From: a candidate division WOR-3 bacterium
Lineage (GTDB): Bacteria > Hydrothermota > Tepidihabitantia > Tepidihabitantales > Tepidihabitantaceae
DNA: 64,000 nt
Direction of reading: 5' to 3'
NCBI GenBank assembly: GCA_016867815.1
Contig: VGIR01000005.1
Span: 779-64,778 of the forward strand
A program made the position numbers and the translations under genes. Shown here one piece after another: positions 347 to 62,629 of the stretch. The notes beneath the pieces are model-generated. The model was given only the letters and a program-made list of their open reading frames with translations. It was not told the DNA's origin and did no database searches. Within the stretch, counting starts at the first letter, position 1, and each line of letters starts with the position of its first letter.

Positions 347-356
347 GGCGTTCGTG

Positions 357-1460
357 ATGAAGCTCCCCGACTACCGGAAACTCCATACGGTCCCGCGCAT
401 CATCATCTTCCTCGTCGGGGTCTACGTCTTCCTTTTCTCAATCGAGCTTATGGGCAAAGGCTTCAACGGGCTGGGCGCCGGGTTCACCCGAACGCTCTTT
501 TCGCTGACCGCCACCCCGCTTACCGGCCTCTTCATCGGCCTGCTGGTCACCTCCATTTGCCAGAGCTCGTCCTCGACGACTTCGGTCGTGGTCGGACTGG
601 TTGCCTGCGGCTCGCTCGATATCACCCACGCCATCCCCATCGTGATGGGTGCGAACATCGGAACGACTGTCACGAGCACGATCGTCTCGTTTGCCCACGT
701 CGGACGCAGACAGGAGTTCGAACGGGCATTCCCGGCCGCCATGGTCCACGATATCTTCAACATCCTGACGGTCATGACCCTGATGCCACTGGAGGCCCTC
801 TTCCACCCGCTGGCGCGTGGGTCGGCCCTGCTCGCCCGGGCGTTCCAAGGCGTCGGAGGGCTCTCCGTTTCCAGTCCCTTGCAGTTCGTCACCGGACCGC
901 CGCTCCACGCTGTCAGCCGGCTCGTGGGTCGCATTGCGTGGATCGAGCTTGCCGTAGCTCTCTTCCTGCTTTTCTCCGCCCTCAAGGTGATGGTGGACAT
1001 GCTCCGCTCGCTCATCAGCCGGCGCTTCGAGGTCATCCTCGACAAGTACCTGTTCGGCAACGCGGGCCGGGCGTTCCTGCTCGGCCTCTTCTTCACTGCA
1101 CTCATCCAGTCCAGCTCGGTCACCATATCCATGGCCGTGCCGCTGGCGGGCGCGGGCCTGCTGACACTCCGCCAGCTCTTCCCCTACGCCCTCGGCGCCA
1201 ACATCGGCACGACGGTCACTGCGGTTCTCGCTGCGCTCGTTACCGGCTCGATTTCGGCCGTGCAAGTCGCGTTCGCCCACACCCTCTTCAACAGCTTCGG
1301 CACAGCAATATGGTATCCGCTGCGCATCGTGCCGCTGTCGATTGCCGGCTGGCTGGGCGGCTTCTGTGCCCGGCACCGCGTGTTCGCCGTGCTTTTCGTG
1401 ATAGTCGTGTTCTTTGCCATACCGCTGGTTGCGGTTATACTTTTGAGGAGGACAGTATGA
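357..1460 (+). CDS. Na+/phosphate cotransporter family protein (NptA/NaPi-II type)
   Basis: Two copies of the QSSS...GANIGTT signature (QSSSSTTS/GANIGTTVT and QSSSVT/GANIGTTVT) and many hydrophobic segments. Start moved to ATG 357. Confidence 0.9.
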   Translation: MKLPDYRKLHTVPRIIIFLVGVYVFLFSIELMGKGFNGLGAGFTRTLFSLTATPLTGLFIGLLVTSICQSSSSTTSVVVGLVACGSLDITHAIPIVMGANIGTTVTSTIVSFAHVGRRQEFERAFPAAMVHDIFNILTVMTLMPLEALFHPLARGSALLARAFQGVGGLSVSSPLQFVTGPPLHAVSRLVGRIAWIELAVALFLLFSALKVMVDMLRSLISRRFEVILDKYLFGNAGRAFLLGLFFTALIQSSSVTISMAVPLAGAGLLTLRQLFPYALGANIGTTVTAVLAALVTGSISAVQVAFAHTLFNSFGTAIWYPLRIVPLSIAGWLGGFCARHRVFAVLFVIVVFFAIPLVAVILLRRTV

Positions 1461-2134
1461 TATTGACCGACCTCCTGAAGCTCTGGAAGAAAACGTCGCT
1501 GGTTGACGAAGCCACCGCGCAGTGTGTCGAGATGCTGCGCATCGGCCAGCAGATGTTCGCCTACTCGCTCGGCGTCCTGATGGACAACGAGTGCGAGGTC
1601 GAGGACATCTACGCGATGGACCGCACCCTGAACCATGGCGAGATTGCGGTTCGCCGCATGATAGCCGAGCACCTCGCGGTCAATCCGCAGGAAGATGCGA
1701 TTCCGGCGCTGTTCCTTGCAACGATTGTCGGCGACATCGAACGGATCGGCGACTACTGCAAGAACCTGATCGAGCTGGCCCACCACTACCCGGAGAAGCT
1801 CGAGGGCCCGTACATCGACCGCATCCGAGCGGTCAAACTGGACGTTGCCAGGATGTACGATGATACCATGAAAGCCTACGCTGAAAACGACGCCTCGCTT
1901 GCCGCCTCGGTGATGGAGCGGCACGCCGAACTCGCCCGGACCTGCGACGGACTGACCGACCGGCTGCTGGCCGAGCAGCAGATGTGCGGACGCGACGCCA
2001 TCATCCGGGCGCTACTGATCCGCTTCCTGAAGCGTGTGTCCGCCCACCTGAAGAACGTCGCCTCGTCGCTGGTGAACCCGTACCACAAGCTCGGCTACAA
2101 GCCGGACGGGACACCCGACGACCGCGACGAATGA
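1457..2134 (+). CDS. PhoU-domain protein
   Basis: ATGA overlap with the symporter stop and RBS GAGGAG at 1445-1450; PhoU repeat motifs DIERIGDYCKN and FLKRVSAHLKNVA. This is the 3' part of track ORF 557..2134. Confidence 0.85.
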   Translation: MILTDLLKLWKKTSLVDEATAQCVEMLRIGQQMFAYSLGVLMDNECEVEDIYAMDRTLNHGEIAVRRMIAEHLAVNPQEDAIPALFLATIVGDIERIGDYCKNLIELAHHYPEKLEGPYIDRIRAVKLDVARMYDDTMKAYAENDASLAASVMERHAELARTCDGLTDRLLAEQQMCGRDAIIRALLIRFLKRVSAHLKNVASSLVNPYHKLGYKPDGTPDDRDE

Positions 2135-2436
2135 CGCGCCCCTGCTGAGAACATAGCCCGCGTCGGCGGGCCTTCGCACGCGCCCGCTCTCACTGTCCCG
2201 CCACACGCCTCCGGGTATCGGCATCTGCACCCCGGCTTCCAGATTCGTCCTCCGCGCCGACTAGCCGAATCCTGACAATTGGCCTATCCGCGCCTGGCAG
2301 ATCGGCCCTAGGCTGTTGCCGCATGTTTGCGGCGGCGCCATCCAGCAGAAGAGCGTGCGTCAGCACACCCAGCAATATTTCGCTTGAATCTGTCAAGGAA
2401 TTGGCCATAATGGTGAGCCTACCAAGGAACGCGGTC

Positions 2437-3120
2437 TTGACTACAGTACTTGAAGACAAAATCGCCGGATTGAAGCAGCAGCTCTTCACGATGGCCGGTA
2501 TCGTGGAAGAGATGATCGGCAACAGCGTCAAGGCGCTGGTCCACAGGGAACCGGCGCTGGCCGAGCAGGTGATCGGCCCGGACGAAGACCGCGTCAACCG
2601 GCTGGAAATCGAGAACGAGGACGCGGCCATCAACCTGATGGCGCTCTACCAGCCCGAGGCTTCGAACCTGCGCGCCATTGCCATGATCATCAAGATCAAC
2701 AACGACCTTGAGCGGCTTGGCGACCATGCGGTCAACATCGCTGAGGCGGCCCAGTTCCTGATGACGCGGCCTGCGGTGAAGCCGCTGGTCGACATCCCGA
2801 AGATGGCCGACTACGCCATCGCCATGCTCAAGGACTCGCTCGACGCCTTCACGCGCACTGATGCCGAACTGGCACGTTCGGTCTGTGGCCGCGACAACAT
2901 CGTCGACGAGCTGAACGACACGGTGAAGACCGATCTCGCCCGGGTCATGAGCGCCGACGCCGCGACCATCGAGCGGGCCCTCAAACTGATGATGGTGTCG
3001 CTGAACCTCGAACGGATCGCCGACCTTGCCACCAACATAGCCGAGGACACCATCTACATCGCGACCGGACAAGTGATTAAGCACCACTGCAAGAACGAGG
3101 CACAGAACCCCGACCATTGA
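2437..3120 (+). CDS. phoU: Phosphate signalling protein PhoU
   Basis: Motifs INNDLERLGDHAVNIAE and NLERIADLATNIAEDTIY; TTG start after AAGGA is probable. Confidence 0.92.
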   Translation: MTTVLEDKIAGLKQQLFTMAGIVEEMIGNSVKALVHREPALAEQVIGPDEDRVNRLEIENEDAAINLMALYQPEASNLRAIAMIIKINNDLERLGDHAVNIAEAAQFLMTRPAVKPLVDIPKMADYAIAMLKDSLDAFTRTDAELARSVCGRDNIVDELNDTVKTDLARVMSADAATIERALKLMMVSLNLERIADLATNIAEDTIYIATGQVIKHHCKNEAQNPDH

Positions 3121-3797
3121 GTCGTCTGATAGCGGTCGTAGACGACGAGCCGGATATCCGTGACCTGGTTGCTCTCCATCTAAAGGGGGCCGGCTTCAGC
3201 GTCCGCGCCTTCCCCGACGCCACGCAGTTCCAGAAGTCGCTCGCCGGCAGCCTGCCGGACTTGGTCATCCTTGACCTGATGCTGCCCGATGCCGACGGAA
3301 TCGATGTCTGCAAGGACATGAAACGCGGCGCCCGTACTACCGACATTCCCATCGTCATGCTGACAGCACGGGGCGACGAACTCGACCGTGTGCTGGGCCT
3401 GGAAATCGGCGCCGACGACTACATCACCAAGCCGTTCTCGCCCAAAGAGCTGGTCGCCCGCGTGAAAGCCGTTCTCCGCCGCCGCGACAAGGGCGGCCGG
3501 CAGGCTACGGTTGAGCTGACCGAAGGCGTAGTCATGGACCCGAACCGCTACGAAGTCTCGGTTAACGGCCGGAAGCTGGAGCTGACGACTACCGAGTTCA
3601 AGCTCCTCGCAATCCTGGCGGAGCGCCGCGGCTGGGTTTTCTCCCGCGACGAGATCTTGGGCCGCCTGTGGGGTGACGAGAAGGCGGTTATCGACCGCAC
3701 GATTGACGTCCACGTGACGAACCTGCGAAGGAAGCTGGGGAAGGCGGGCCGGCTCATCGAGAACGTACGCGGCGTCGGCTACAAGCTTACCGACTGA
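3117..3797 (+). CDS. phoB: OmpR/PhoB-family response regulator
   Basis: Receiver (VVDDE, LDLMLP, LTA, KPF) plus winged helix (RTIDVHVTNLRRKL, VRGVGY); overlaps the phoU stop. The symbol is inferred from context. Confidence 0.85.
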   Translation: MSRLIAVVDDEPDIRDLVALHLKGAGFSVRAFPDATQFQKSLAGSLPDLVILDLMLPDADGIDVCKDMKRGARTTDIPIVMLTARGDELDRVLGLEIGADDYITKPFSPKELVARVKAVLRRRDKGGRQATVELTEGVVMDPNRYEVSVNGRKLELTTTEFKLLAILAERRGWVFSRDEILGRLWGDEKAVIDRTIDVHVTNLRRKLGKAGRLIENVRGVGYKLTD

Positions 3798-3799
3798 AC

Positions 3800-3897
3800 A
3801 GGAATCAAGGAATCGAGGATTCAAGGAACCCAGTGAACGGATTGCCCGAGTCAGGCTCTCACATGAATCCTGGAATCCTGGGATCCTCGTATCCTCT
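3800..3897. repeat. Inverted pair of 8-mer micro-repeat tracts, AGGAATC(A/G)-like on the left and GAATCCTG-like on the right
   Basis: aggaatcaaggaatcgaggattcaaggaacc ... gaatcctggaatcctgggatcctcgtatcct, between the regulator and kinase genes. Confidence 0.7.
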
Positions 3898-3906
3898 GCC
3901 CCGTCT

Positions 3907-5238
3907 TTGAAGCGCTACATCCTGCTGCGGTTGCTCGCCCTCCAGCTGGCGATAGTCATTGTGCTGCTCGTCGCAGGCCTGGCCGCGCGCGGCACGCGGC
4001 ACAACACGATCCTCTGGGTCACAGCCGCGGTTGTCACGGTGGCCACCGGCGCGGTGTCATATCTGGTCGCCCGCAGCACGGTGCGGCCGCTTCGTGACCT
4101 GACTGCGGCGTTTCGCCGGCTGAGTGCCGGCGACTTCGACGTCCGCGTGCTTCCCGCCAAGCGTGGCCGGCTGCGCGAACTTGGCGATGACTTCAACCAG
4201 ATGGTATTCAGGACCAAGACGCTGGTAGACGAACTGCGCCAGCAGCGCGAGGCTCTGGACGCAATCGTTGCGTCGATCCAAGAAGGCCTGGCCGTGGTGG
4301 ACGGGCAGGGCCGAATCGTCCTTGCCAACGCCAGCTTCCGCCGCCTGGCTGGTGAATCCAAGATCGAAGGCCGCTACTACTGGGAGATAATCCGCGAGCC
4401 GGATTTCGTCGAACTCGTTCGCTCAGTGACGGCCGGGGCCCCGTTGGCTACCCGACAGATCGAGATCGCCGACCGTATCTACGCCTGCAGCGCTAACTAC
4501 CTCGCGACCGCGCAACAGGTCGTTCTGACCCTCCACGACGACACCGAGGTCGCGCGGGCCGCGCAGATGAAGAAGGACTTCGTCCAGAACGTTTCCCACG
4601 AACTCCGAACGCCGCTCACCGCCATCAAGGGCTTCGCCGAGACCATGGAAGCGACCATTGACAACGGCAGCCGGCCGTACCTCGAGACCATCATCCGCAA
4701 CACTGACCGGCTCGTCAGTCTCGTGCAGGACCTGCTCACGCTCTCTGAACTGGAGGAACGCGGAGCCGGGCTCCAACTTGAGGACGTCGATCTGCGGGCC
4801 ATCGCCGCGCAGATGCTTCCGCTCTTCGACAAGGCGGCAAAAGACAAAGGACTCGAACTGAAGCTCTCGTTGTCCGGGGACGGTGTCCCGCTCCGCGCCG
4901 ACCGGTTCAAGCTTGAGCAGGTCTTCATCAACCTGCTCGACAACGCGGTCAAGTACACCGACAAAGGAGAGGTCGAACTCGCCATCAGTCGTGAGGACGG
5001 CAAGATCGTTATCGAGGTCCGCGACACCGGACCCGGTATTGCGGCCGAGCACCTGCCCCGGCTGTTCGAGCGCTTCTACGTGGTGGATAAAGGCCGCTCC
5101 CGCCGGCTCGGAGGCACCGGGCTCGGCCTGTCGATAGTGAAACACATCGTCCTCCTTCACTCTGGCGACATCTCGGTGCGTAGTACGCCCGGTGCGGGCA
5201 CGGCTTTCACCATCTCGCTACCGATCGGGACAACATAG
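3907..5238 (+). CDS. phoR: PhoR-like sensor histidine kinase (2 TM, HAMP, PAS, HisKA, HATPase)
   Basis: H-box NVSHELRTPLTAIKG, N-box NLLDNAVKY, G-boxes DTGPGI and GTGLGLSIVKH, and the PhoR-typical RFYVVDKGRSR. Confidence 0.88.
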   Translation: MKRYILLRLLALQLAIVIVLLVAGLAARGTRHNTILWVTAAVVTVATGAVSYLVARSTVRPLRDLTAAFRRLSAGDFDVRVLPAKRGRLRELGDDFNQMVFRTKTLVDELRQQREALDAIVASIQEGLAVVDGQGRIVLANASFRRLAGESKIEGRYYWEIIREPDFVELVRSVTAGAPLATRQIEIADRIYACSANYLATAQQVVLTLHDDTEVARAAQMKKDFVQNVSHELRTPLTAIKGFAETMEATIDNGSRPYLETIIRNTDRLVSLVQDLLTLSELEERGAGLQLEDVDLRAIAAQMLPLFDKAAKDKGLELKLSLSGDGVPLRADRFKLEQVFINLLDNAVKYTDKGEVELAISREDGKIVIEVRDTGPGIAAEHLPRLFERFYVVDKGRSRRLGGTGLGLSIVKHIVLLHSGDISVRSTPGAGTAFTISLPIGTT

Positions 5239-6651: not shown

Positions 6652-8901
6652 GTGACCAACACCAAGAAGAAGATACTCGTAGTTGAGGACGATGCCGGCC
6701 TGCGTGAAATGGTCAAGAGTAGGCTCGAGAAGGAAGGGTTTGACGTAGTCACCGCGACCGATGGGTTCCAGGCCGTCGTCACGGCACGCCAGGGCGACCT
6801 CGACCTGATTGTTCTCGATTTGATACTCCCCAAGATGGACGGCTACTCGGTATGCCAGCTGCTCAAGTCGAGCGGGGCAAAGACCCCGATCATCATCCTC
6901 AGTGCCCGTTCGTCGCCGGAGGACATACGCCGAGCCCTCGACATGGGAGCGAACGCCTTTGTTCCCAAGCCGTACGACGCGCCGGTGCTGGTGAGCAAGG
7001 TCCGCGAGATCCTGTTCCCCGGGGAACAGGCCAAGACGTCGGTGGCCGCACCCGTAGCAGCTCCTCCGAAACCGGCGCCGGTAGTTGAGGCGCCGAAACC
7101 GGCTCCAGCAGCGGCGGTTATGACGCCCCCCGCCCTGGACAAAGCGAAGGCGGAACGCGAGGCGGCGGAACGGCGGGCGAAAGAGGAAGCCGAAGCCAGG
7201 GCACGTGCCGCCGACGCTGAACGCAGGCGGCAGGAAGAAGCCCGGAAGACAACGCCGACACCCACCAAGGAAGAGCTCGAACTCATAGAAGAAGAGAAGA
7301 GACTCGCCCAGAAACGAGCCAAGCTGCAGGCTGAGGCCCAGGCTCGCGCCGAAGCGGAACGGAAGCGGCAGGAAGAAGAACAGAAACTCGCGGCGCAGCG
7401 CGCCCGCGAGGAAGCCGAAGCCAAGGCTCGCGCCGAAGCCGAACGTAAGCGCAGGGAAGAGGAAGAGAGACTTGCCGCGCAGCGCGCCAAGGAAGAGGCC
7501 GATGCCAAGGCTCGCGCCGAGGCCGAACGCAAACGCCGGGAAGAAGAACAGAAGATCGCGGCGCAGCGCGCTCGCGAGGAAGCTGAAGCCAAGGCCCGCG
7601 CCGAAGCCGAGCGCAGGAAGCGTGAGGAAGAGGAACGCAGAATCGCCGCCCAGCGGGCCAAGGAAGAAGCCGAAGCCAGGGCTCGCGCCGAGGCCGAACG
7701 CAAACGCCGGGAAGAAGAACAGAGGATCGCGGCGCAGCGCGCCAAGGAAGAAGCCGAGGCCAAAGCGCGCGTTGAGGCGGAACGCAGGAAGAAGGAAGAG
7801 GAACGAAGACTCGCCGAGCAACGCGCCCGCGAGGAAGCCGAAGCCAAGGCTCGCGCCGAAGCCGAACGCAAGCGGAAAGAAGAAGAAGCTCGCCGACTCG
7901 CCGAGCAGCGAGCCCGCGAGGAAGCCGAGGCTCGGGCACGCTCAGAGGCCGAGATCAAGCGGCTCGATGAGCAGGAACGCAGACTCGCCCAGCAACGCGA
8001 GAAGGACGACGCCAAGACCAAATCCCGCTTCGACGGAGAACGGCGAAAACTCGAGGAAGAGGAGCGAAAGCTCGCCGAGAGACGGGCGCAGTTTGAAGCC
8101 CAGGTGAAAGCCTACGCTGATGAGGATCGCAAGCGCAAGGATGAGGAACGGAAACTCGCCGAGAAGCGCGGGCAACTTGAAGCCCAGGTGAAGGCCTACG
8201 CCGAAGCGGAACGCAAACGGAGAGAAGAGGAACAGCGGATCGCTGCGCAGCGCGCCAAGGAAGAAGCTGAGGCCAGAGCACGGGCCGAAGCAGAACGCAA
8301 GCGGAAAGAGGAAGAGGAGCGCCGGAGACGGGAAGAGGAGCAGCGAGCCAAAGAGGAAGCCGAGGCCAGGGCACGCGCCGAAGCAGAACGGAAGCGAATC
8401 GAGGAAGAGGAGCACAAACTGGCCGAGAAGCGTGCCCGCCTCCAGGCCGATGCCAAGGCACGCGCTGATGAGGAGCGCAAGGTGGCCGAGCGGCGAGCCA
8501 AAGAGGAAACCGAGGCCAAGGCACGCGCCGAAGCGGAACGCAAGCGACTCGAGGAAGAGGAACGTTTGCTGGCCGAGCACCGCGCCAAGGAGGAGGCGGA
8601 AGCGAAGGCCCGCGCCGAGGCGGAGCGCAAGCTGGCCGAAATGCGCGCCAATGAGACAGCCAAGGCCAAGGCTCGGGCCGAAAAGGAGCGCCAGGTTGCC
8701 GAGCAGCGTGCCAAGCTCGAAGCCGAAACCAAGGCCCGCACCGAGGCCCAACGCAAGCGCACGCAGGAGGAAGCCGAAGCCAAGGCCCGCGCCGAAGCGC
8801 TGCAACGGGAATGCGAAGAAGAGGAACGCAAGCTCGCCGAACGGAAAGCCCGGCTGGAGGCCGAAGCCAAGGCCCGCGCCGACAAGAACCGCAAAGCATA
8901 G
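6652..8901 (+). CDS. Response-regulator receiver fused to a P/A linker and a very long E/R/K/A charged helical repeat
   Basis: Intact receiver residues (EDD, LDLILP, LSA, PKPY), then ~590 aa of 28-29-aa repeats such as EEEQRIAAQRAKEEAEARARAEAERKRR; RBS AGGAGG before the GTG. Confidence 0.85.
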   Translation: MTNTKKKILVVEDDAGLREMVKSRLEKEGFDVVTATDGFQAVVTARQGDLDLIVLDLILPKMDGYSVCQLLKSSGAKTPIIILSARSSPEDIRRALDMGANAFVPKPYDAPVLVSKVREILFPGEQAKTSVAAPVAAPPKPAPVVEAPKPAPAAAVMTPPALDKAKAEREAAERRAKEEAEARARAADAERRRQEEARKTTPTPTKEELELIEEEKRLAQKRAKLQAEAQARAEAERKRQEEEQKLAAQRAREEAEAKARAEAERKRREEEERLAAQRAKEEADAKARAEAERKRREEEQKIAAQRAREEAEAKARAEAERRKREEEERRIAAQRAKEEAEARARAEAERKRREEEQRIAAQRAKEEAEAKARVEAERRKKEEERRLAEQRAREEAEAKARAEAERKRKEEEARRLAEQRAREEAEARARSEAEIKRLDEQERRLAQQREKDDAKTKSRFDGERRKLEEEERKLAERRAQFEAQVKAYADEDRKRKDEERKLAEKRGQLEAQVKAYAEAERKRREEEQRIAAQRAKEEAEARARAEAERKRKEEEERRRREEEQRAKEEAEARARAEAERKRIEEEEHKLAEKRARLQADAKARADEERKVAERRAKEETEAKARAEAERKRLEEEERLLAEHRAKEEAEAKARAEAERKLAEMRANETAKAKARAEKERQVAEQRAKLEAETKARTEAQRKRTQEEAEAKARAEALQRECEEEERKLAERKARLEAEAKARADKNRKA

Positions 8902-8955: not shown

Positions 8956-9771
8956 GTGACAACACCACAGTTGATCAGATTCGCGCTGGCGGAAGATGTC
9001 GGCACGGGTGACGTCACCTCCCGACTTGCGGTTCCTGCTCGCCGGCTTGCCTCTGCCCGGCTGGTCGCTCGCGCAGCCGGAGTAATTGCCGGCCTCGATG
9101 TGTGCTGCCGGGTCTTCCTTACCGTTGACTCGTCTGTCCGCTTCGCGCCCAGGTTGGAGGATGGCGCTCGGTACCGCAGGAACCAGGTGCTTGCTGTCGT
9201 CAGCGGCCGGGCCCGGTCGATTCTCACCGCCGAACGCACCGCCCTCAACTTCATCCAGCGGCTGTCCGGCATCGCCACGGCAACCCGCAGATTCGTCGAC
9301 GCAGCCCGCGGGACCAAGGCCGTCATCCTCGATACGCGCAAGACGACGCCGGGCTGGAGAGTGCTGGAGAAGTTCGCGGTCCGCTGCGGCGGCGGCACCA
9401 ATCACCGTGCCGGCCTCTACGACATGATTCTCATCAAGGATAACCACATCGCGGCTGCCGGCTCGATCACGGCGGCCCTCGAGCGTTGCCGCTCCAGCCG
9501 ACTATCGACTGAGGTCGAGACGCAGACCCTGGCTGATGTCAAAGAGGCCCTGGCCGGTGGAGCGAAGCGCATACTGCTCGACAACATGACTGTGGCAGAG
9601 ATGAAGAAAGCGGTTGCGCTCGCCCGCGGCAAGGCGCAGCTCGAGGCCTCGGGCGGAGTCACTTTGCGGAACGTGCGCCGGGTTGCGCACACCGGGGTTG
9701 ACTACATCTCAGTCGGAGCCATAACCCATTCGGCTCCGGCCGCGGACATCGCGCTCGATTTCGAAGGGTGA
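8956..9771 (+). CDS. nadC: Nicotinate-nucleotide diphosphorylase (quinolinate phosphoribosyltransferase)
   Basis: Motifs LAEDVGTGDVT, LDTRKTTPG, NHRAGLYDMILIKDNH, LLDNM, EASGG, DYISVGAITHS. Confidence 0.96.
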   Translation: MTTPQLIRFALAEDVGTGDVTSRLAVPARRLASARLVARAAGVIAGLDVCCRVFLTVDSSVRFAPRLEDGARYRRNQVLAVVSGRARSILTAERTALNFIQRLSGIATATRRFVDAARGTKAVILDTRKTTPGWRVLEKFAVRCGGGTNHRAGLYDMILIKDNHIAAAGSITAALERCRSSRLSTEVETQTLADVKEALAGGAKRILLDNMTVAEMKKAVALARGKAQLEASGGVTLRNVRRVAHTGVDYISVGAITHSAPAADIALDFEG

Positions 9772-9850
9772 TCGAGTGTCCCAGTGATCCAGTGCGCGAC
9801 GCTGGACGCCGGTTCCTCCACTCGATCACTAGACCACTAGACCACTGGTC
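9768..9850. repeat. Inverted micro-repeat tracts between the convergent nadC and dprA
   Basis: gtgatcgagtgtcccagtgatccagtg ... cactcgatcactagaccactagaccactgg. Confidence 0.6.
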
Positions 9851-13092: not shown

Positions 13093-13140
13093 CCCTCCTC
13101 ACCCTGGCGCCGCTCGCCCTCTCCCCGCCAGGGAGAGGGT
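13093..13140. repeat. Palindromic element family A (CCCTCACCC..CCCTCTCCC..GGGAGAGGG), intergenic copy
   Basis: ccctcctcaccctggcgccgctcgccctctccccgccagggagaggg; related copies at 60008 and 62439. Confidence 0.7.
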
Positions 13141-31807: not shown

Positions 31808-31876
31808 GGACGTCTAGAATATGCCTGCCTTGCCCCGAGTCAAGCCGAGGGCCGCAGCCCCAGAACCGAGATTGAT

Positions 31877-31960
31877 GGCCACGAAGACACGAGAGCGGAG
31901 TGAAACGGACATGTCGTATCCCGCACCCATTCGTTTCGTGTCCTTCGTGCTTTCGTGGCT
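31877..31960. repeat. MITE-like element family C (GCCACGAA..CACGA ... TTCGTG..TTCGTGGC inverted ends)
   Basis: Homologous copies at 54963 and, inverted, at 62864. Confidence 0.7.
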
Positions 31961-32164
31961 CCAAAGTCGGATCCAGGACCGCAGCCGCTGGACGGTTCTG
32001 CGGGCGGGGTGGGGCAAGATCCTTGCTCACCTGAAGCAGACGCAATGGCGGGCTGGTTCTGTCGTGCGCAGCCGCATCGCACGCACTTGCTGGAACAACT
32101 GATACACCAGGTCACCCCCCCTGCCCGAGTTTGCGGCCTGCTGTTTGAGCCTTGCGGCTTGCGT

Positions 32165-32404
32165 TTATCCACACGCTTCCGGAACAACAACAAAACTAGT
32201 TAGAAGAACCTGTTGCTGCTGTTGGGATGTGGATGGATGTGGATAGCTCCTCAGCCTGCACAACATCTTCCTCGGTGTGTCCGGGGGTCTCCACTACAGG
32301 TTGTGGTTAGTTATCCACATAGTTATCCACATTCTATCCACACTTTCCACACCCGCCGTGACTTGGGCGAACTACTATACGCTGTATCCACCGAGTTGTC
32401 CACA
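32165..32404. promoter_or_regulatory. DnaA-box cluster, candidate replication origin (oriC)
   Basis: Perfect TTATCCACA at 32165, 32311 and 32323; one-mismatch boxes at 32238 (reverse), 32334, 32343 and 32396; AT-richer non-coding context. Confidence 0.7.
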
Positions 32405-32685
32405 CCACTACATATAGGTGTTGACATTGAAATCCTGTCCGGCATCTTGAGTAGATGGCCGACAAAGACTCTGCTTCTTACGGCGGGCTACTCCCCGGGC
32501 AGTCCCGGGGCTTGCCCTCCCTGCGGACGGAAGTTCGAAGGTCGAAGCTCGAATGACGAATGGAAGTGCCCGAAAAGAACCGAGGAGTTAGTGCAAGACG
32601 CCCAGCAGGCGTAACTACCATATTATTGAAGCTTTAGGCCAGGTCGCAAGCCCGGGAGTTCGCATATAGGGGTCGCCTGGGGGCT

Positions 32686-32826
32686 AGCCCTTTGAGGAGC
32701 TTTCGACGAAGCCATGAGACGAGCCTTGAAATGAGCTTTGAGTTGAGCTTTCAGAGGAGCTTTGACCCGAGCTTTGCGTCGAGCTTTGAAGCAAGCAATC
32801 AAAGAAGCGACGCACTGAGCTTCTAG
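32686..32826 (+). repeat. 12-bp-period array with invariant AGC (GAGCTTT-N5 core)
   Basis: AGC recurs every 12 nt from 32686 to 32818; GAGCTTT at 32697, 32733, 32745, 32757, 32769 and 32781. Confidence 0.8.
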
Positions 32827-32925
32827 ATGAGCGATGCGGCGAGCGATGGACTATGGAGATTGAGGTCGAGGTTAAGGTCGAGTGCAGGATGAAGTTGCCG
32901 ACGCAGTCCAGTACACGGCGAGCGA

Positions 32926-32980
32926 TACTTCTGCCGGTGCTTCGAGCCGTGCTTCGGCTCCTGCTTCGCCGCGTGCTTCG
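32926..32980 (-). repeat. Second 12-bp-period array on the opposite strand (TGCTTCG-N5)
   Basis: TGCTTCG at 32938, 32950, 32962 and 32974; degenerate unit at 32926. Confidence 0.75.
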
Positions 32981-33074
32981 CGACGTCGTACGAGAGGCTG
33001 GAGAATCCGTCAGCCGACAACCGAAACGGCGCGGCAGAGCCGCGCCGTCACGAGTGAGTGGTTGCTCTTTGCGG

Positions 33075-36804: not shown

Positions 36805-39411
36805 ATGCTGCGGAAATCCCTGTTCCTGATTATCGCGGTCGGGCTCTCTTTGTGCCTGGCCGGTGAATTCCTCGCCCTCGTTCCGAACACGGCCCCGGAC
36901 GACCTCGCCGGGCAATACACCGTCGTCGGCGTCACCGGCCGCGGCACGCTGGTGCTGGGGGACGAATCCGAGCTCGCCGACCTCTTCGCGCGCGACGGGT
37001 CCTGGCTCGCCGCTGACCCGAAGGACCACCTGTACTTCACCGTTCGCCTGTTCGCCCAGGCTTCGCGCACCGACCTGGCGGCGGTTTCCCGCATCCTTGA
37101 CTTCGACGGCGAGCAGTACCTGGTCGAAGTCGAGTCCGATGCCGTCGAGCGCTTCATCGCCGTGCCGGCAATGCGCGGCCGCATCAGCCTGAACGGCTGG
37201 GTCATGGACCGCCCGACACCGAAGCTACCTGTTGTTCTCTCCAACCCGTCGGTCGAGCAGATCGTGGCGCGCGTCTCGTCCGACTCGGTGCTCGCATTCG
37301 TACGCCGGCTGCAACAGTACCGCAACCGCTACTCGACCGGTGACTCCTGCAAAGCCGCCGCCCAGTGGATTGCGGCGACGTTCCGGGCTTACGGCTGCGA
37401 CACGGTCATCCTGCAGAACCATACTACCAACCACGCGCCCAACGTCGTCGGGGTCCGCTACGGCACTTCAGGACAACGTAGTCCGTATGCAATCATCGAC
37501 GGCCACTTCGATGCCTACGCCGCGTCGAACGCGCCCGGCGCGGACGACAACGCCTCGGGCACGGTGTCCGCAATCGAGGCCTGCCGGGTAACACAGGGCT
37601 TCCAGTTTCGGCACGACCTCAGGTTCATCGCTTTCTCGGGCGAGGAGTTCGGCCTGCTCGGCAGCGAGTACTACGCCGGGCGGGCGCGCAGCCAGGGAGA
37701 CTCGATTCTCGGCGTGCTGAACTTCGATATGATCGCCTACGAAGACAGCGCTCCCGAGGACCTCGAGGTGATAGGGAAGATCGCCAGCCCGGCCTGCGGG
37801 CCGTTCGTTGACTGGTTCATCGCGGTCGCCGACACCTACACGAGCCTGCCCTGCAGCAAAGAGATGGTCTCCGACATGCAGAGCTCCGACCAGGGGCCGT
37901 TCTGGAACAACGGCTACCTGGGATTCTGCGGCATCGAAGACTATTGGCCCGGCAACCCGTACTACCACACACCCGGCGACTCGATTGGCGCCGGGTACAA
38001 CAACAACAACTTCTGCACCGAAGTCATCCGGGCCGGCGTCGCTGCCCTCGCCACGATGGGCGAGCCGGTGCCGCAGAACGTGCCCTCGGTCGGCCTGCTG
38101 CACAAGCTGCTCGACGACTCTGCGGGCAACGACAACGGCAAGTGGGACGCGGGCGAATCGGTCGCCGTCTTTCTGACGCTGAAGAACTTCGGTATGGCCG
38201 GTGCCACCGGTGTGAGCGCTGCGGTCAGCTCCACCGATCCGTATGTCACGCTCTACAACGTGGACGCGGCCTACGGCGACATCGCCGGGCTGGACACAGC
38301 GGTCAACGCGGTGCCCTTCACGATGAAAGCCGCCCCCAACACTCCCCGCGAGCACGTGGCCGACTTCGACCTGACGATCTCCTCTGCCGAGTCGAGTTGG
38401 CAGACGACCTTCTCCTTCCCCATCGGCGAGTACCTGAACACGGACCCGATACCGGACGGGCCGCGCGTGCCCGCGCGCTACTGGGCCTACGACGACGTCG
38501 ATACGCTCTATCCCGAGCACCCGAACTACGAGTGGGTCGAAGTAAACGCGCAGGGTACGAGGCTCACATTCTCGGACAACGACGACGTCGTCCCGGTCAG
38601 CCTGCCGGCAGCATTCGGCCCGTTCCGGTACTACGGCCGGAGTTACAGCCAGATATCGGTATCTGCCGACGGCTGGATTGCGGCCGGAAACTACACCACG
38701 TCCAACTTCGACAACACCATCCTGCCCAGCACCTCGGCCCCGCGCGCCACGGTCTTCGCCAACTGGGACGACCTCTACCCGGTGTCGGGCAGCGGAGGAG
38801 CCGGCTACGTGTACTGGTTCCACGACTCGGCCAATCACCGCTTCATCGTTGAGTACGACAGCGTCAAGTACTACTCGGGCTCGAACCGAGACAAGTTCGA
38901 GGTCATCTTCTACGACACCACGGTTACGACTCCGACCGGCGACAACGTCATCGTCGCGCAATACAAGACCGCGGCCGGGTTCACGAGTTCCACAGTCGGT
39001 ATCCAGGACTCGACCCGGGCCATCGCGATCCAGGACCTTTTCAACGGCACGCTGGCCCACGGAGCATCGCCGATTGTCCCCGGCCGGGCCATCAAGTACA
39101 CGACGGCCCCCGGCACCGGGGTCGCCGAGCCGACCCGCCGCCTCACGCCGGACGCCTTTCACCTCACGCTCGACAGGAACCCGGTATGCGGGAGCGCACA
39201 AGTCCGGTTCAGCTTGCGTCAGGCGTCAAGCGTCAGGCTTGAGGCCTTTGACCGGACCGGCAGAAAGCTCACGACCCTGGTTTCCAGTTTCGCATCCGCC
39301 GGCTCGCACGCAACGACCTGGGACACCCGTGAAGTCCCGACCGGCATCTACTTCCTCCGGCTGACCGCTGCAGGCGGACAACGTTCGCTCAAAGTGGTAG
39401 TCGGCCGCTAG
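36805..39411 (+). CDS. Secreted M28 metallopeptidase with extra beta domains and T9SS-CTD-like C-terminus (long paralog)
   Basis: Signal peptide; IDGHFD, PGADDNASG, FSGEEFGLLGS, NFDMIAY, YYHTPGDS. Confidence 0.92.
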   Translation: MLRKSLFLIIAVGLSLCLAGEFLALVPNTAPDDLAGQYTVVGVTGRGTLVLGDESELADLFARDGSWLAADPKDHLYFTVRLFAQASRTDLAAVSRILDFDGEQYLVEVESDAVERFIAVPAMRGRISLNGWVMDRPTPKLPVVLSNPSVEQIVARVSSDSVLAFVRRLQQYRNRYSTGDSCKAAAQWIAATFRAYGCDTVILQNHTTNHAPNVVGVRYGTSGQRSPYAIIDGHFDAYAASNAPGADDNASGTVSAIEACRVTQGFQFRHDLRFIAFSGEEFGLLGSEYYAGRARSQGDSILGVLNFDMIAYEDSAPEDLEVIGKIASPACGPFVDWFIAVADTYTSLPCSKEMVSDMQSSDQGPFWNNGYLGFCGIEDYWPGNPYYHTPGDSIGAGYNNNNFCTEVIRAGVAALATMGEPVPQNVPSVGLLHKLLDDSAGNDNGKWDAGESVAVFLTLKNFGMAGATGVSAAVSSTDPYVTLYNVDAAYGDIAGLDTAVNAVPFTMKAAPNTPREHVADFDLTISSAESSWQTTFSFPIGEYLNTDPIPDGPRVPARYWAYDDVDTLYPEHPNYEWVEVNAQGTRLTFSDNDDVVPVSLPAAFGPFRYYGRSYSQISVSADGWIAAGNYTTSNFDNTILPSTSAPRATVFANWDDLYPVSGSGGAGYVYWFHDSANHRFIVEYDSVKYYSGSNRDKFEVIFYDTTVTTPTGDNVIVAQYKTAAGFTSSTVGIQDSTRAIAIQDLFNGTLAHGASPIVPGRAIKYTTAPGTGVAEPTRRLTPDAFHLTLDRNPVCGSAQVRFSLRQASSVRLEAFDRTGRKLTTLVSSFASAGSHATTWDTREVPTGIYFLRLTAAGGQRSLKVVVGR

Positions 39412-40659: not shown

Positions 40660-42222
40660 GTGCTGCGGAAGTCGTTTCTGCTGATCGTCACCGTCGCGGC
40701 TTCTCTGGCCGGGGCCGCTGAGTTCCTCGGACTGGTGCCGAACTCGACTCCGGAAGACCTGGCCGGCCGCTACACCATCGTCGGCGTCACCAGCCACGGC
40801 GTGCTGATCCTGTCCGGCGAAGCCGCCGACGGCGACTTCGCGGCGCTGCACGGGCGGCTCCTGGCCGAAAACCCGAAGGCACACCGCTACCACACCGTGC
40901 GCCTGCTCGCTGATTCGTCCCGCGCCGACCTTGCCGCGGTCTCCCGCATCCTCGACTTCGACGGCGAGCAGTACCTTGTCGAGGTCGATCCCGACGCGAT
41001 CGAGAGCTTCCTTGCCGTGCCGGCGATGCGCGGCCGAATCAGCCTGGACGGCTGGGTAATGGGCACGCCCGCACCCGAGCTGCCTCGCGTCCTGTCCAAT
41101 CCGACAATTGAACGGATCGTGGCGCGGGTCTCCCCGGACTCGGTGCTCGCGTTCGTGCAGCGGCTCCAGGATTTCGGCAACCGCTATGCGCTCGGAGAAT
41201 CGGGCAAGGCAGCTGCCCGGTGGATTGCCGGGAGGTTTCGAGACTGGGGATGCGACACGGTCATCCTCCAGGACCACGATGCGGACTACGCGCCCAACGT
41301 CGTCGGCGTCCGCTACGGCTCTGACGGCCGGCGCCAGACCTACGCGGTCATCGACGGTCACTTCGACGGCATCCCCTGGTCGCCCGGCGCCGACGACAAC
41401 GCCTCGGGCGCGGTCTCAGCAATCGAGGCTTGCCGCGTGACACAGGGCTTCCAGTTCCGTCGCGACCTCCGCTTCATCGCCTTCTCCGCCGAAGAACTGG
41501 GATTGGGTAGCCCCTACTATGCCGGCCAGGCGCGGAACCGGGGCGACTCTATCCTCGGCGTCCTCAACTTCGACATGATTGGCTACGCGGACTCCGTGCC
41601 CGAGGACCTCGAGGTCATCGGCAAGATCGCGAACCCGGCCTGCGAACCGCTGTGCGACTTGTTCATGGCAGCCGCCGACACGTACACCACACTCAACTGC
41701 AACAAACGGATGATGACGGACATGCCGTATTCGGATCATGCTTCGTTCTGGAACAACGGCTACGTGGCGCTCTGCGGCAGCGAGGACTTCTGGCCACCGA
41801 ACCCGTACTATCACTCACCCGGCGACTCGATTGGCGCCGGGTACAACGACAACGGCTTCTGCACCGAAGTCATCCGGGCCGGCGTCGCGGCCCTGGCGAC
41901 TCTGGGTGAGCCCTTGCCGGCGGGCGTGTCGTCATCCGCGCCCTTCGACCTCTTGTCCGGCAGCACTTATGGGCTCGTTCTCCAGCCGAACCCGGTACGC
42001 GGGACCGCACAAGTTCGATTCAGCTTGCGTCAGGCGTCAAGCGTCAAGCTGGAAGCTTATGACCGCTCCGGACGAGGACTGGCGACATTGGCTTCCGGCT
42101 CAGCTTCCGCCGGCGCGCACTCCGCGACCTGGGACACCCGTGACGTCCCGACCGGCATCTACTTTCTCCGGCTGACCGCTGCAGGCGGACAACGTTCGCT
42201 CAAGGTGGTAGTCGGCCGCTAG
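40660..42222 (+). CDS. Secreted M28 metallopeptidase with T9SS-CTD-like C-terminus (short paralog)
   Basis: IDGHFD, PGADDNASG, FSAEELGL, NFDMIGY, SDHASFW, YYHSPGDS; lacks the central domains of the long paralog. Confidence 0.9.
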   Translation: MLRKSFLLIVTVAASLAGAAEFLGLVPNSTPEDLAGRYTIVGVTSHGVLILSGEAADGDFAALHGRLLAENPKAHRYHTVRLLADSSRADLAAVSRILDFDGEQYLVEVDPDAIESFLAVPAMRGRISLDGWVMGTPAPELPRVLSNPTIERIVARVSPDSVLAFVQRLQDFGNRYALGESGKAAARWIAGRFRDWGCDTVILQDHDADYAPNVVGVRYGSDGRRQTYAVIDGHFDGIPWSPGADDNASGAVSAIEACRVTQGFQFRRDLRFIAFSAEELGLGSPYYAGQARNRGDSILGVLNFDMIGYADSVPEDLEVIGKIANPACEPLCDLFMAAADTYTTLNCNKRMMTDMPYSDHASFWNNGYVALCGSEDFWPPNPYYHSPGDSIGAGYNDNGFCTEVIRAGVAALATLGEPLPAGVSSSAPFDLLSGSTYGLVLQPNPVRGTAQVRFSLRQASSVKLEAYDRSGRGLATLASGSASAGAHSATWDTRDVPTGIYFLRLTAAGGQRSLKVVVGR

Positions 42223-60007: not shown

Positions 60008-60090
60008 CCCCTCACCCCGACCCTCTCCCCATACGCGGGGCGAGGGGGAATCTCCTCTCCCCTTGATGGGGAGAGGAAGAAGGTGAGGGG
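60008..60090. repeat. Palindromic element family A, intergenic double copy
   Basis: ccctcaccccgaccctctcccc...ggggcgaggggg...cctctcccc...ggggagagg...ggtgagggg. Confidence 0.75.
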
Positions 60091-60098
60091 TGCATTCG

Positions 60099-61541
60099 TC
60101 ATCGGTCATTCCCCTCGGGCTGTGACGCTTCAGACGAGGGACGGTGGACGAGACTACGAAGAACCTCGATTCCCTTCTCGAGGATCTCGTCCCGGCCGGC
60201 GCGAACTCCCTCGACAGTCGGCGCGGCCTGAACGTCAGGTATGATGCCGACATTCTGGAACCGGCTGCCATCTCCGAACTTCACCCGCATGCCGGTGAAC
60301 CAGAGGCGCCCGCCGCCCGGCAGGCTAATCCAGGTTCGGTTGCCGTTGCAGCCCGCGGTCGTTCCACCCACGAACGTCCCTCGCCCGGCGTTCTTGAGAT
60401 AGATGCAGACGTCTTCGGCGCTGCCGATGGTCTTCTCGTTGACAAGGACCACGACCGGTCCGCCATAGTGCGCCTTCGCATCCGGCTGGACATCATACTG
60501 ACCGGTGCTTACGACCTGTTCCTGGCTATCAAAGCCGGACACGACGCGTATCTCGTAGATCGCCGACTTCACCGGCCGGTCACTCAGCCTTGAAGCTAGC
60601 GCGAGCTGCATAGTGAATCCCGGATGCCGCCGGATGTCGACGATCAGACCATTTGTTCCGCGCAGCGCCTCGAACGCGCGCTCGAACTCCCGCAGGCTTG
60701 CCAGCCGGCCGAGGTCCATGTAGCCGACGTTCTCTTCCAGAACCCGGTACCCGCTCGACTCACCTCTGCGTGCCGAATAGGCAATCCGCGCCTCGCGGGT
60801 TAAGGTACGCTTCAGACAGAGCGACAAGCAAGGGATCGAGGGATCAAGGGATCGAGGAATCGAGGGGCCGGAGTCCGATACCGGAGCCTCGCCTGACTCT
60901 ATCCCTTTGTCCCTTTGTCCCTTCACTCCCTTCCGTCTGATCACCAGCTTCACTTCGCTACCGGCCTGTCCAAGGACCAGCATTTCGCACATCCGCTGAT
61001 AGAACGCGCCCTCGGTGGAGTACGAAACCTGCAGCCGGTGCTCAGTAACCAGTTCCTGCACCGTCTTCCCGTCGAATTCAACCACTTCGTCGCCGACCTG
61101 CAGAGAAGGGACCGAGGGATCAAGGGATCGAGGGATCAAGTGATCCGGGCCTGAATCCGAAGCCCCAATCTGTGCAATCTGCGAAATCTGTGGATGCTCC
61201 ATCACATCCGTGACAATGATCTTGCCTTCGACCCAGGCGAAGAACACCGGCAGCGACTGCGATTCGGGCAGGTTCGGGAAGAAGTAGAAGACGTTGTTGT
61301 CGTGCAGATGAGCGGTCAGCATCCGGAGCGTGCGCGCGTACGCAAGCAGGCTCTCGGCTTCCTCGACCTTGGGAATCCACTCCGCCAGGCAGGCACTCCA
61401 GTCCATGTCGCACAGCTCGACGTGCGGGTCAAGATAGCGTATCACGCTCCAGACTTTGAACAGGCCCAGTAACCGCTCCTCACGAGACGGAGTCCTGCCG
61501 GTCTCTTGCAGCGGCGCCGGCAGCCTCAGATCCACCAGCAC
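60099..61541 (-). CDS. S41-family peptidase, C-terminal module (helical domain, PDZ, catalytic domain)
   Basis: VWSVIRYLDPH, LQVGDEVVEFDG (PDZ), GYMDLG, LIVDIR, VLVNEKTIGSAE (catalytic Ser), GIIPDV..PT..GVRAGRDEILEKG. Confidence 0.85.
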   Translation of the reverse strand: MLVDLRLPAPLQETGRTPSREERLLGLFKVWSVIRYLDPHVELCDMDWSACLAEWIPKVEEAESLLAYARTLRMLTAHLHDNNVFYFFPNLPESQSLPVFFAWVEGKIIVTDVMEHPQISQIAQIGASDSGPDHLIPRSLDPSVPSLQVGDEVVEFDGKTVQELVTEHRLQVSYSTEGAFYQRMCEMLVLGQAGSEVKLVIRRKGVKGQRDKGIESGEAPVSDSGPSIPRSLDPSIPCLSLCLKRTLTREARIAYSARRGESSGYRVLEENVGYMDLGRLASLREFERAFEALRGTNGLIVDIRRHPGFTMQLALASRLSDRPVKSAIYEIRVVSGFDSQEQVVSTGQYDVQPDAKAHYGGPVVVLVNEKTIGSAEDVCIYLKNAGRGTFVGGTTAGCNGNRTWISLPGGGRLWFTGMRVKFGDGSRFQNVGIIPDVQAAPTVEGVRAGRDEILEKGIEVLRSLVHRPSSEASQPEGNDR

Positions 61542-62629
61542 GGCGGGCGACTCTCGACTCTCGACTCTCGACTTTCTGCCGCCAACGCTCGCTCCGCAAC
61601 CGCAGCAAGTTGGTCTGGAGCAATCGGTCCATCCGTGACAATGTCGGGACGGAATCCGGCCTGCCCACTGTGCCCGACCAGCAGATCCGTGCTGAGCTGC
61701 ACGGCGACGCCCTCAGGGAATGCCAATCGGAACGGCGGCTCTCCCAGTGGCGGGCCGCTCGGTTCGAACACTACTGCAACCCCCGGCTGAGACTGCAGCG
61801 CGTCGAGCGCCCGGTAGTATCTGGATGCGAACGGCCGATTGACCAACAAGACGGTCGGCGTGTCAATTGGCTTCAGCTTTGAAAAGTCTGTGCCGGGAGA
61901 CAGGGCAGCCACGAACCACTCGGCCTGCTGTATCGGACGCAACCCGGTCCCGGCACTCACTTCCCACTTCTGCTGGTATGCGCTGTGGCTGTTGTCCTCA
62001 TTCCAGCCCAGATGGACTCGTCTCATCACCGGGCTCATCTGCAGCCGCCCGCGGACGAAGAACTGAAGCACCGGGTCGATCACGCGGTAGCCGAGCGCGA
62101 CCGGCCAACGCAGGTCCACGATGAGCGTCTTGACATCTCCCAGGCCCTCGACCGTGGCCTGGAAGTCAGCAAGGAACTCGGATCCCCGCGCCGTCGGCGG
62201 CGGAACCCGCACGTAGCCAACCGAGTCCGCAATCCGCTTCGCTTCGAGGCGCCCGTCTTTCACTCTATCCCTTGATCCCTCTATCGCTCTATCCCTTCTC
62301 GCTTCCGCAAACGTCAGCGGATCATCCAGCCCCTGCAGTAACTCCTCGTTGATAGCTGCGGCCAAGTCCTCAGGCGTTTGCGCAGCCTCGACGCGGGGAA
62401 TGGCCCGGACCAAGGCCTGATGCCAGTCTAACTCAGCTCCCTCACCCTCTCTCCCTCTCCCACCGGGAGAGGGACGGTTCTCTTCGCTCTGTTCCCCTCT
62501 CCCTCTGGGAGAGGGTTGGGGTGAGGGCGCAACAACCGCAGGATGGAACAGATAGACCTTGCCCCACAGTTCGGCTAGCGCCTCAAGGCGCTTGAGCCGA
62601 ACTGAGGATTCTGGGGTCCTGGGGCTCAC
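61526..62629 (-). CDS. S41-like peptidase, N-terminal module, probably non-catalytic
   Basis: LWGKVYLFHP, DWHQAL, GYVRV, LIVDLR, LLVN, GFRPDI; no SA(S/G)E motif. Confidence 0.75.
   Translation of the reverse strand: MSPRTPESSVRLKRLEALAELWGKVYLFHPAVVAPSPQPSPRGRGEQSEENRPSPGGRGREGEGAELDWHQALVRAIPRVEAAQTPEDLAAAINEELLQGLDDPLTFAEARRDRAIEGSRDRVKDGRLEAKRIADSVGYVRVPPPTARGSEFLADFQATVEGLGDVKTLIVDLRWPVALGYRVIDPVLQFFVRGRLQMSPVMRRVHLGWNEDNSHSAYQQKWEVSAGTGLRPIQQAEWFVAALSPGTDFSKLKPIDTPTVLLVNRPFASRYYRALDALQSQPGVAVVFEPSGPPLGEPPFRLAFPEGVAVQLSTDLLVGHSGQAGFRPDIVTDGPIAPDQLAAVAERALAAESRESRVESRPPCWWI
61549..61576. repeat. Heptamer tandem repeat (GACTCTC)3-GACTTTC at the junction of the two S41 ORFs
   Basis: Read directly from the sequence: units start at 61549, 61556, 61563 and 61570. 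Confidence 0.9.
62439..62527. repeat. Palindromic element family A, in frame inside the S41 N-module
   Basis: Encodes PSPQPSPRGRGEQSEENRPSPGGRGREGEG between FHP and DW. Confidence 0.8.

Follow-up and report, generated by a model that had tools for sequence, protein, structure and literature searches.

The split S41 locus and its repeat blocks

We analyzed a 64,000-nucleotide stretch of DNA (the window) from a candidate division WOR-3 bacterium (contig VGIR01000005.1 of assembly GCA_016867815.1, positions 779 to 64,778 of the forward strand), which contains a peptidase family S41 locus with several blocks of repeat DNA in its coding sequence. A preliminary description of the window, drawn from the letters alone, had treated this locus as one gene with at least four in-frame, repeat-derived insertions. 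Instead, the locus consists of two open reading frames (ORFs) that overlap by 16 nt on the minus strand:

61526-62629, minus strand: ORF2, 367 aa; module at the N-terminus of the S41-family protein, ending 20 nt past the heptamer tract described below
60099-61541, minus strand: ORF1, 480 aa; C-terminal module with predicted PDZ and Peptidase_S41 catalytic domains

A GTG start codon for ORF1 lies 13 nt upstream of the stop codon of ORF2. ORF1 matches Peptidase_S41 (PF03572; E = 1.4e-18; 67.5 bits compared to a cut-off of 24) and gave a weak PDZ_4 match (22.1 bits) slightly under the cut-off. Together with the AlphaFold model of ORF1, these domains point to the S41 and PDZ combination of peptidase family S41 (C-terminal processing or tricorn-core type). 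ORF2 gave no Pfam match, and its AlphaFold model resembles S41 peptidases (4l8k and 8vcb) and modules of the interphotoreceptor retinoid-binding protein (IRBP; Foldseek E = 5e-9), suggesting an S41/IRBP-like fold. From these matches and models, the locus would encode a two-module S41-family protein, in which a non-catalytic S41-like module precedes a PDZ and S41 peptidase module; we hold this architecture, jointly with the explanation of the repeats developed below, with moderate confidence.

Tandem tracts were called with Tandem Repeats Finder (TRF). The four blocks of the preliminary description were recovered by TRF and by folding, with translations that agree with the peptides it gave, and a fifth tract, which it had overlooked, lies between the two modules:

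62439-62527: site A palindrome, 89 nt; REPIN-like double hairpin with outer arms CCCTCACCC/GGGTGAGGG and two inner GGGAGAGGG hairpins; peptide PSPQPSPRGRGEQSEENRPSPGGRGREGEGA
62263-62296: site B octamer tract, period 8, 4.2 copies; AGGGATAG/AGGGATCA on the coding strand; peptide RDRAIEGSRDRV
61548-61573: site C heptamer tract, CGACTCT, 3.7 copies; inter-module linker and frameshift site; peptide ESRESRVESR
61106-61192: site D composite; octamer GGGATCRA, 5.0 copies (61106-61145), spacer (61146-61165) and nonamer CAATCTGTG, 3.0 copies (61166-61192); peptide HPQISQIAQIGASDSGPDHLIPRSLDPSVP
60831-60923: site E composite; octamer GGGATCGA, 4.5 copies (60831-60866), spacer (60867-60901) and octamer TCCCTTTG, 2.8 copies (60902-60923); peptide KGVKGQRDKGIESGEAPVSDSGPSIPRSLDPSIP

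The site A palindrome folds into one long hairpin (-32.2 kcal/mol; z = -6.5) that none of 200 shuffles equalled. Unit types were as first described except at 60902-60923, where the supposed heptamer is an octamer. The repeat types are also fewer than they had appeared: sites D and E have a common tract-spacer-tract layout, and both are built on the octamer GGGATCRA. The gene has this octamer at three points, at one of which its orientation is reversed; the peptide is RDRAIEGSRDR for one orientation and IPRSLDPSIP for the other. The site D composite was also found in four orthologues (P0002, P0003, P0006 and P0007), and the copy at the related locus L005 is 88.5% identical to that of the window by global alignment and 90.4% identical over 94 nt by blastn. 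None of the other sampled orthologues has the site E composite of the window. By our own rough gene calls, the 2.5-kb S41 locus contains six TRF tracts of at least 2.8 copies, compared to approximately six in all remaining coding DNA of the window (≈52 kb).

Variable sites in S41 orthologues

Searching proteins with ORF1 gave 154 homologues, and the alignment set comprised 31 full-length close relatives (at least 740 aa) and the read-through window protein. All 31 orthologues are single proteins of 747-840 aa that span both ORFs and are 47-75% identical to ORF1; two of them are labelled candidate division WOR-3. The alignment revealed six variable sites (A to F) in an otherwise well conserved protein. 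These sites are listed below with their block-mean predicted local distance difference test (pLDDT) values in AlphaFold (AF2) models made for each ORF (overall pLDDT, 85.7 for ORF2 and 86.8 for ORF1; predicted template modelling score, 0.85):

Site A, after FHPAIV (ORF2 34-67): 0 aa in 14 of the 31 orthologues; in the others, four unrelated families give lengths of 13, 15-17, 25 or 30 aa; pLDDT 51-67
Site B, after PLTFA (ORF2 111-123): equal length in all close orthologues, with varying units (GGGATCRA-like, GCAAGCC-like and others); pLDDT 60-76
Site C, inter-module linker (ORF2 352-361): equal length in all close orthologues, with varying units (AAGCCTC, AGGGACC, AGGGGCG); pLDDT 67 dropping to 43
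Site D, inside PDZ (ORF1 114-146): 4-50 aa across orthologues; pLDDT 43-77
Site E, after the last PDZ strands (ORF1 204-238): 7-56 aa across orthologues; pLDDT 47-79
Site F, C-terminal tail (ORF1 469-480): variable; pLDDT 51

The window protein carries true insertions at sites A, D, and E. Site A has 30 aa where the 14 orthologues have none (net +30 aa), site D has 31 aa compared to 4-9 aa in six orthologues (net insertion of ≈25 aa), and site E has 38 aa compared to 7 aa in ten orthologues (net insertion of 31 aa). By contrast, the segment at 62260-62300 (site B), which had also been counted as an insertion, shows no gain in length among close orthologues; its loop is ≈6 aa shorter in the outgroup P0039. 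At site C, the CGACTCT unit was found in the window only among the aligned orthologues.

In the DNA of 10 orthologous genes, the site peptides are encoded by heptamer, octamer, and nonamer tracts (e.g., GCCTCAA x4.6 and AGGGACC x4.6) and by GGGACAGTCCCC-type hairpins. One and the same site holds different repeat families in different species, or is empty. For annotation, it is of practical use that peptides such as IPRSLDPSIP, SSLKPQASS, GTVP, and GEGRGEG in proteins of metagenome-assembled genomes (MAGs) are read-through repeat DNA rather than conserved motifs.

Mapping onto predicted structure, which the preliminary description had proposed as a check, placed all six sites in coil of depressed confidence in the two AlphaFold models, as expected of disordered loops. 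The repeat composites themselves had pLDDT values of 43-54 at site D and 47-50 at site E. The idea that the blocks cluster at domain borders around the PDZ domain held less well. Only sites D and E are located at this domain, and sites A and B lie in the N-terminal module. Moreover, site D is inside the PDZ domain and not at its border, because the weak PDZ_4 match spans site D in an orthologue with empty sites.

Frameshift in the inter-module linker

The four blocks described at the outset do keep the reading frame, as had been claimed for them, but the locus is frameshifted at the fifth tract, in the linker. Both frames are open across this tract, and the ORF1 frame, which stays open upstream through it, reads ...SRVESRESPAVLVDL... 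A single ORF is restored by adding one heptamer or by removing two, and the linker tracts of orthologues have ≈4.4-4.6 copies compared to the 3.7 of the window. No slippery X XXY YYZ motif was seen when the heptamer tract was read by eye, and no dedicated frameshifting analysis was made.

A unitig covering 61111-62524 showed no difference from the window in contigs of eight independent lake-water metagenome runs. With one and the same heptamer tract in the contigs of all eight runs, the lesion is real in the sampled lake population. The same contigs bear on the possibility that an assembler stitched the repeats into the gene. Some low-depth unitigs do link tract to tract (e.g., 60852 to 61114); however, zero-difference unitigs cross every site at genome depth in the eight runs, and the architecture recurs, with the frames open, in assemblies made independently from other samples and other species. 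We therefore regard an assembly artefact as exceedingly improbable.

The broken frame, and the lack of an intact allele among the entries found in the protein database, would also fit a decaying pseudogene that is dead in this organism and gathers repeat insertions passively; an unexpressed pseudogene had been named at the outset as one of two findings that would overturn the reading of the blocks as insertions. This alternative did not fare well. No second lesion was found in the 2.5-kb gene, and the linker between the modules is precisely where the frame breaks, with the GTG start 13 nt before the ORF2 stop codon. Ratios of nonsynonymous to synonymous substitution rates (Ka/Ks) between the window and four orthologues were 0.13-0.17 for both modules, similar to those of intact orthologue pairs (0.14-0.23). 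Because of these low ratios, the substitution pattern shows no apparent long-term decay of the split gene. Furthermore, intact orthologues bear equivalent insertions, of the same kinds, at the same sites. A pseudogene of this sort is thus improbable. The split in the window would represent either a gene fission that is tolerated or an inactivation of recent date.

Recombination of hot-spot alleles

Two orthologues, P0017 and P0022, share 98% identity except in the hot spots and are wholly different at sites D, E, and F. Their DNA is 100% identical over 1300 nt, after which P0017 matches a third orthologue, P0018, across site D. Because this switch includes the flanking single-nucleotide polymorphisms (SNPs), it marks a mosaic: hot-spot alleles are swapped among strains by homologous recombination. 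At site F of P0022 (≈5880-5910 of L008, in the S41 gene), a 27-nt insert, GGCCGCAGCGGCCCCTGTCGGACAGTG, lies within an octamer tract and is absent from the near-identical P0017. This insert is reminiscent of the small dispersed repeats described within heptamer tracts of cyanobacteria.

The mosaic is relevant to the idea that the gene is a contingency locus, in which slippage in non-triplet tracts would switch the protein on and off or vary its loops, and the window would represent an 'off' or 'split' phase. The presence of a heptamer tract exactly at the frameshift, the restoration of the frame by one more unit, and the variation of hot-spot content even between proteins that are 98% identical elsewhere agree with such a locus. 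Yet the differences between close relatives are those of recombination with flanking SNPs, not changes in unit number, and no tract is long (3-6 copies). Nothing points to a surface role, with no signal peptide evident at the N-terminus by inspection only. Copy number was the same in the contigs of all eight runs, so the copy-number polymorphism of phase-variable contingency loci was not seen there, which is weak evidence because contigs hide rare variants. On balance, we think a contingency locus improbable, to about the same degree as a pseudogene.

Hairpin families and a RAYT-like gene

Window and L004 share 93% identity in the site A hairpin, compared to 71-75% in the flanking coding sequence. 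In Logan contigs of eight metagenomes, the hairpin (62444-62537) has a depth of 200-5000 compared to ≈15-20 for the flanking gene, or 20-300x the local depth. The GGGAGAGGG/GGGTGAGGG hairpin is common to many organisms of these lake communities. Because of this identity and depth, the site A hairpin is drawn from a conserved, abundant pool and has not diverged together with the gene. The high depth applies to the community and not to each genome; within the 64 kb, the family occurs at three places, one of them coding. Five copies of this palindrome family were aligned.

The intergenic copies named in the preliminary description proved to be of several kinds. That at 60008-60090 belongs to the site A palindrome family (-29.1 kcal/mol; z = -5.0) and is located right after the S41 stop codon, before a TrmB-family gene; 13117-13139 holds one hairpin belonging to this family; and the octamers at 3800-3897 are related to those of the gene, not identical. 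In site A and in 60008-60090, two inverted short palindromes form one long hairpin, which is the arrangement that defines repetitive extragenic palindrome (REP) pairs, or REPINs.

At L006 10774-11439, a Y1_Tnp gene resembling REP-associated tyrosine transposases (RAYTs) lies between inverted GGGACGCTACCC/GGGTAGCGTCCC hairpins. These hairpins are similar to the GGGACAGTCCCC hairpins, which read GTVP or GDSP at sites A and E of several orthologues. Because the Y1 transposase gene is flanked by inverted GGGACGCTACCC hairpins, L006 suggests that a RAYT-type system serves at least one hairpin family in this clade. This was the only RAYT found, and its hairpin family differs from that of site A, for which no cognate RAYT was found in the window, the part of the source genome that was available.

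Repeats in intergenic DNA and in other genes

Across 212 kb (the window and 10 related loci), TRF detected 64 period-7, 30 period-8, and 9 period-9 tracts at the census threshold of at least 2.8 copies. First-order Markov shuffles gave ≈1.2, ≈0.6, and ≈0.8 tracts, respectively, so that the observed numbers exceed chance more than 35-fold for periods 7 and 8. Intergenic DNA, which makes up ≈13% of the total, contains 46 of 110 tracts. Another 55 lie within genes, ≈30 of them in eleven S41 genes, a share that is biased by the choice of loci for their S41 content; genes for tetratricopeptide repeat (TPR) proteins are also rich in tracts. The tracts thus agree with heptamer-type long simple sequence repeats (units of 6-9 nt in at least three copies, at many loci, above chance, and mostly intergenic), with the genes for S41 and TPR proteins as exceptions. 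Coding tracts of the window have exact matches of 23 nt and 19 nt in intergenic tracts of L004 and L001.

Two intergenic modules of the window, at 3800-3895 and 9768-9846, have the tract-spacer-tract layout of sites D and E (AGGAATCA x3.6 ... GAATCCTG x3.9 and GTGATCCA ... CCACTAGA), and the second is located between convergent genes. Hairpin potential was marginal (z ≈ -2) at 60826-60936, 3796-3899, and 9764-9850, with z ≈ -1.9 for the two intergenic modules, and z was -0.06 at 61100-61196. A test for enrichment of stop-free units among coding tracts was uninformative; in this GC-rich DNA, 71% of random 7- and 8-mers are stop-free on both strands.

The octamer GGGATCRA is not confined to S41 genes. 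We found at least 120 stretches of three copies in GTDB genomes, often several per MAG in Phycisphaerae, Planctomycetota, and WOR-3. A urocanate hydratase of an uncultured bacterium (L063 6137-7876, and also L055 and L144) carries a 21-aa in-frame insert, LPESEIRTPATRSLDPLIPGS, compared to PDB 1x87. This insert consists of a GGGATCRA tract and a spacer starting GGCCGGAGTCCG, as at site E of the window, with the first 12 nt of the spacer shared. In addition, a class I aminoacyl-tRNA synthetase of an AT-rich Saganbacteria MAG (L012 4242-6995) contains GGGATCAA x3 in frame (GTEGSRDQGIKGEE); we take this enzyme to be ValRS-like from recognized motifs only. GGGATCRA was not shown to be a special unit: viral contigs contained three such stretches compared to four and five for two permuted control octamers.

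Origin of the repeat blocks

A purely local origin would account for the blocks as low-complexity linkers made by in-place slippage in each lineage, with no exchange with intergenic repeats, and shared units would reflect coincidence or composition. The constant length of sites B and C in all close orthologues is consistent with this explanation, as are the viral contigs, in which permuted octamers were as frequent as GGGATCRA, and the lack of insertion signatures at the tracts. Unit sharing between coding and intergenic tracts (29 of 58 at up to one mismatch) was near the rough chance rate of about one third; we dropped this measure and used only the exact 19-23-nt matches. These exact matches, however, argue against a local origin, and five further observations do so too: the 89-nt double hairpin of site A is no slippage product, its 93% identity between species exceeds that of its flanks, the GGGACAGTCCCC hairpins that orthologues carry at site E look like the REPs around the RAYT gene of L006, many orthologues have empty sites, and the GGGATCRA tract with the first 12 nt of its spacer recurs in an unrelated gene. 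We consider a purely local origin unlikely, if less so than a pseudogene or a contingency locus.

The explanation that we favour, and hold to be rather probable, is that the surface loops, inter-module linker, and C-terminal tail of the S41 protein have been colonized by the intergenic-type repeat DNA of this lineage, namely tracts of 7-, 8-, or 9-nt units in 3-6 copies and REP/REPIN-like hairpins. Its descriptive part is well supported: tolerant loops contain read-through repeats, the fixed sites are occupied by many families, and recombination shuffles the alleles. The source of the tandem tracts could be insertion, ectopic conversion, or in-place slippage.

Several results weigh against colonization by such repeats. 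For the tandem tracts, we found no transposase, target-site duplication, or clean insertion boundary, and tblastn gave no RAYT match in the 64-kb window. De novo slippage can generate such tracts, since GGGATCRA is no commoner than its permuted controls in viral contigs. An exact-match metagenome scan with the 19-mer of the site E tract/spacer junction gave 35 hits, of which only the urocanase lay in tract context, so mobility of the composite as an element was rejected. Likewise, the tract-spacer-tract modules were rejected as structured elements, because their folding barely beats that of shuffles (z ≈ -2 or worse). The division of the census into coding and intergenic tracts depended on a home-made gene caller, the metagenome data were assembled contigs, in which minor in-frame heptamer variants may be hidden, and none of the RNA runs searched held the S41 locus.

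If colonization is correct, tracts and hairpins would arrive either as insertions or through ectopic recombination with copies elsewhere, and slippage would then alter them. Selection would retain only stop-free versions with a net length that is a multiple of three, and only in tolerant loops. With non-triplet units, the allowed changes in length would come in three-unit steps; because only such steps keep the frame, sites B and C would stay constant in length while their units change. Because the units are not multiples of three, a one-unit slip would likewise suffice to split the window gene: the linker tract would be one heptamer off an in-frame length, which would leave two ORFs that part precisely where the modules meet.

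In-gene tandem repeats usually have units divisible by three, whereas here non-triplet repeats of intergenic type persist in a conserved enzyme. The 31 orthologues form a natural experiment, in which the loops are empty or variously filled and alleles recombine. The origin of disordered loops and linkers in bacterial proteins thereby becomes testable, as does the cost of the arrangement, of which the one-unit slip that broke the window copy exactly at the module boundary is an example. More tentatively, and with doubt outweighing confidence, we suggest that non-triplet tracts and REP hairpins are continually seeded and replaced at fixed loops of conserved proteins in this clade of WOR-3, and perhaps also in Phycisphaerae and other groups. 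Such a process would produce length-quantized, fast-turnover disordered segments and occasional gene splits at linkers. Bacteria would thereby have a general way of gaining disordered regions and of splitting genes that differs from Rickettsia palindromic elements and from triplet-unit repeats. Its footprint would be GGGATCRA in frame in S41 genes, in urocanate hydratase, and in the ValRS-like synthetase of another phylum.

Neighbouring genes and other features of the window

Eleven related loci (L001-L011) were fetched. The gene order of the window, with a gene for a protein with a type IX secretion system (T9SS) tail, the S41 gene, and the TrmB-family regulator gene, is kept in L001-L007 and L011, eight of the nine related loci whose flanks could be read. 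The upstream genes of L008 lack a Por_Secre_tail match, both neighbours are missing from the outgroup L009, and L010 does not extend far enough to tell.

Three further repeat-bearing regions were noted in the window. A cluster of three perfect DnaA boxes (TTATCCACA) and three with one mismatch, at 32165-32404, looks like a replication origin from its sequence; it lies in ≈1.3 kb of non-coding DNA (31808-33074) with several tandem tracts. An ORF at 6652-8901 contains a coding repeat at 7333-8313 (continuing to 8798) with an 84-nt period, ≈11.6 copies, and an A/E/K/R-rich product; its units are triplet-based, unlike the 7- and 8-nt tracts. Finally, a GCGTCAG/GCGTCAA heptamer tract (x3.3) with similar flanks occurs at 39216-39238 and 42027-42049, each time ≈60 aa from the C-terminus of a long ORF (36805-39411 and 40660-42222). 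These two ORFs are probably paralogues with a common repeat-bearing tail.

Comparison with known repeat systems

Rickettsia palindromic elements (RPEs) are in-frame palindromic repeats of ≈150 bp in unrelated conserved genes, which are translated and compatible with the protein fold (Ogata et al., 2000; as summarized in PMC10969869). The parallel drawn in the preliminary description is apt for the mode of working: the site A palindrome is in frame, adds 30 aa, and is missing from 14 of the 31 orthologues. We liken the two by mode alone and, the host being WOR-3, claim no membership in the RPE families of Rickettsia. The phylum is another, and the element has 89 nt compared to ≈150 bp (as summarized in PMC10969869). 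Moreover, several families, including non-palindromic tandem tracts, here share and swap sites in one gene.

REP/REPIN elements are mobilized by RAYT (Y1) transposases, and REPs are by definition mainly extragenic (PMC3116915). Site A and 60008-60090 resemble them in their paired inverted hairpins and in their abundance in the community, and L006 encodes a Y1_Tnp among REP-like hairpins. They differ in that one copy is coding here, the window has no RAYT, and the RAYT gene of L006 is flanked by another family (GGGACGCTACCC).

Heptamer-type long simple sequence repeats, including the cyanobacterial short tandemly repeated repetitive (STRR) sequences and the TAACTGA repeat of Beggiatoa, are essentially intergenic, and coding units are expected to be multiples of three (PMC4679880, PMC4692102). 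The tracts described here are similar in their 7-9-nt units, 3-6 copies, many loci, many units, and intergenic enrichment; in contrast, non-triplet units also occupy fixed loops of conserved enzymes.

The tandem repeats of Borgs evolve fast, have in-ORF units that are all divisible by three, and create intrinsically disordered regions (PMC9879509). As in Borgs, nucleotide tandem repeats within ORFs give rise to disordered segments, and homologues carry repeats at the same places. By contrast, the units here are 7, 8, or 9 nt and mostly 7 or 8, all three phases of each tract are translated, and a slip of one unit breaks the gene, which separates these tracts from the amino acid tandem repeats (aaTRs) of Borgs, whose triplet-based units yield perfect repeats of amino acids. 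Thus, the S41 locus combines features of RPEs, REP/REPINs, and heptamer repeats and is a member of no single one of these systems.

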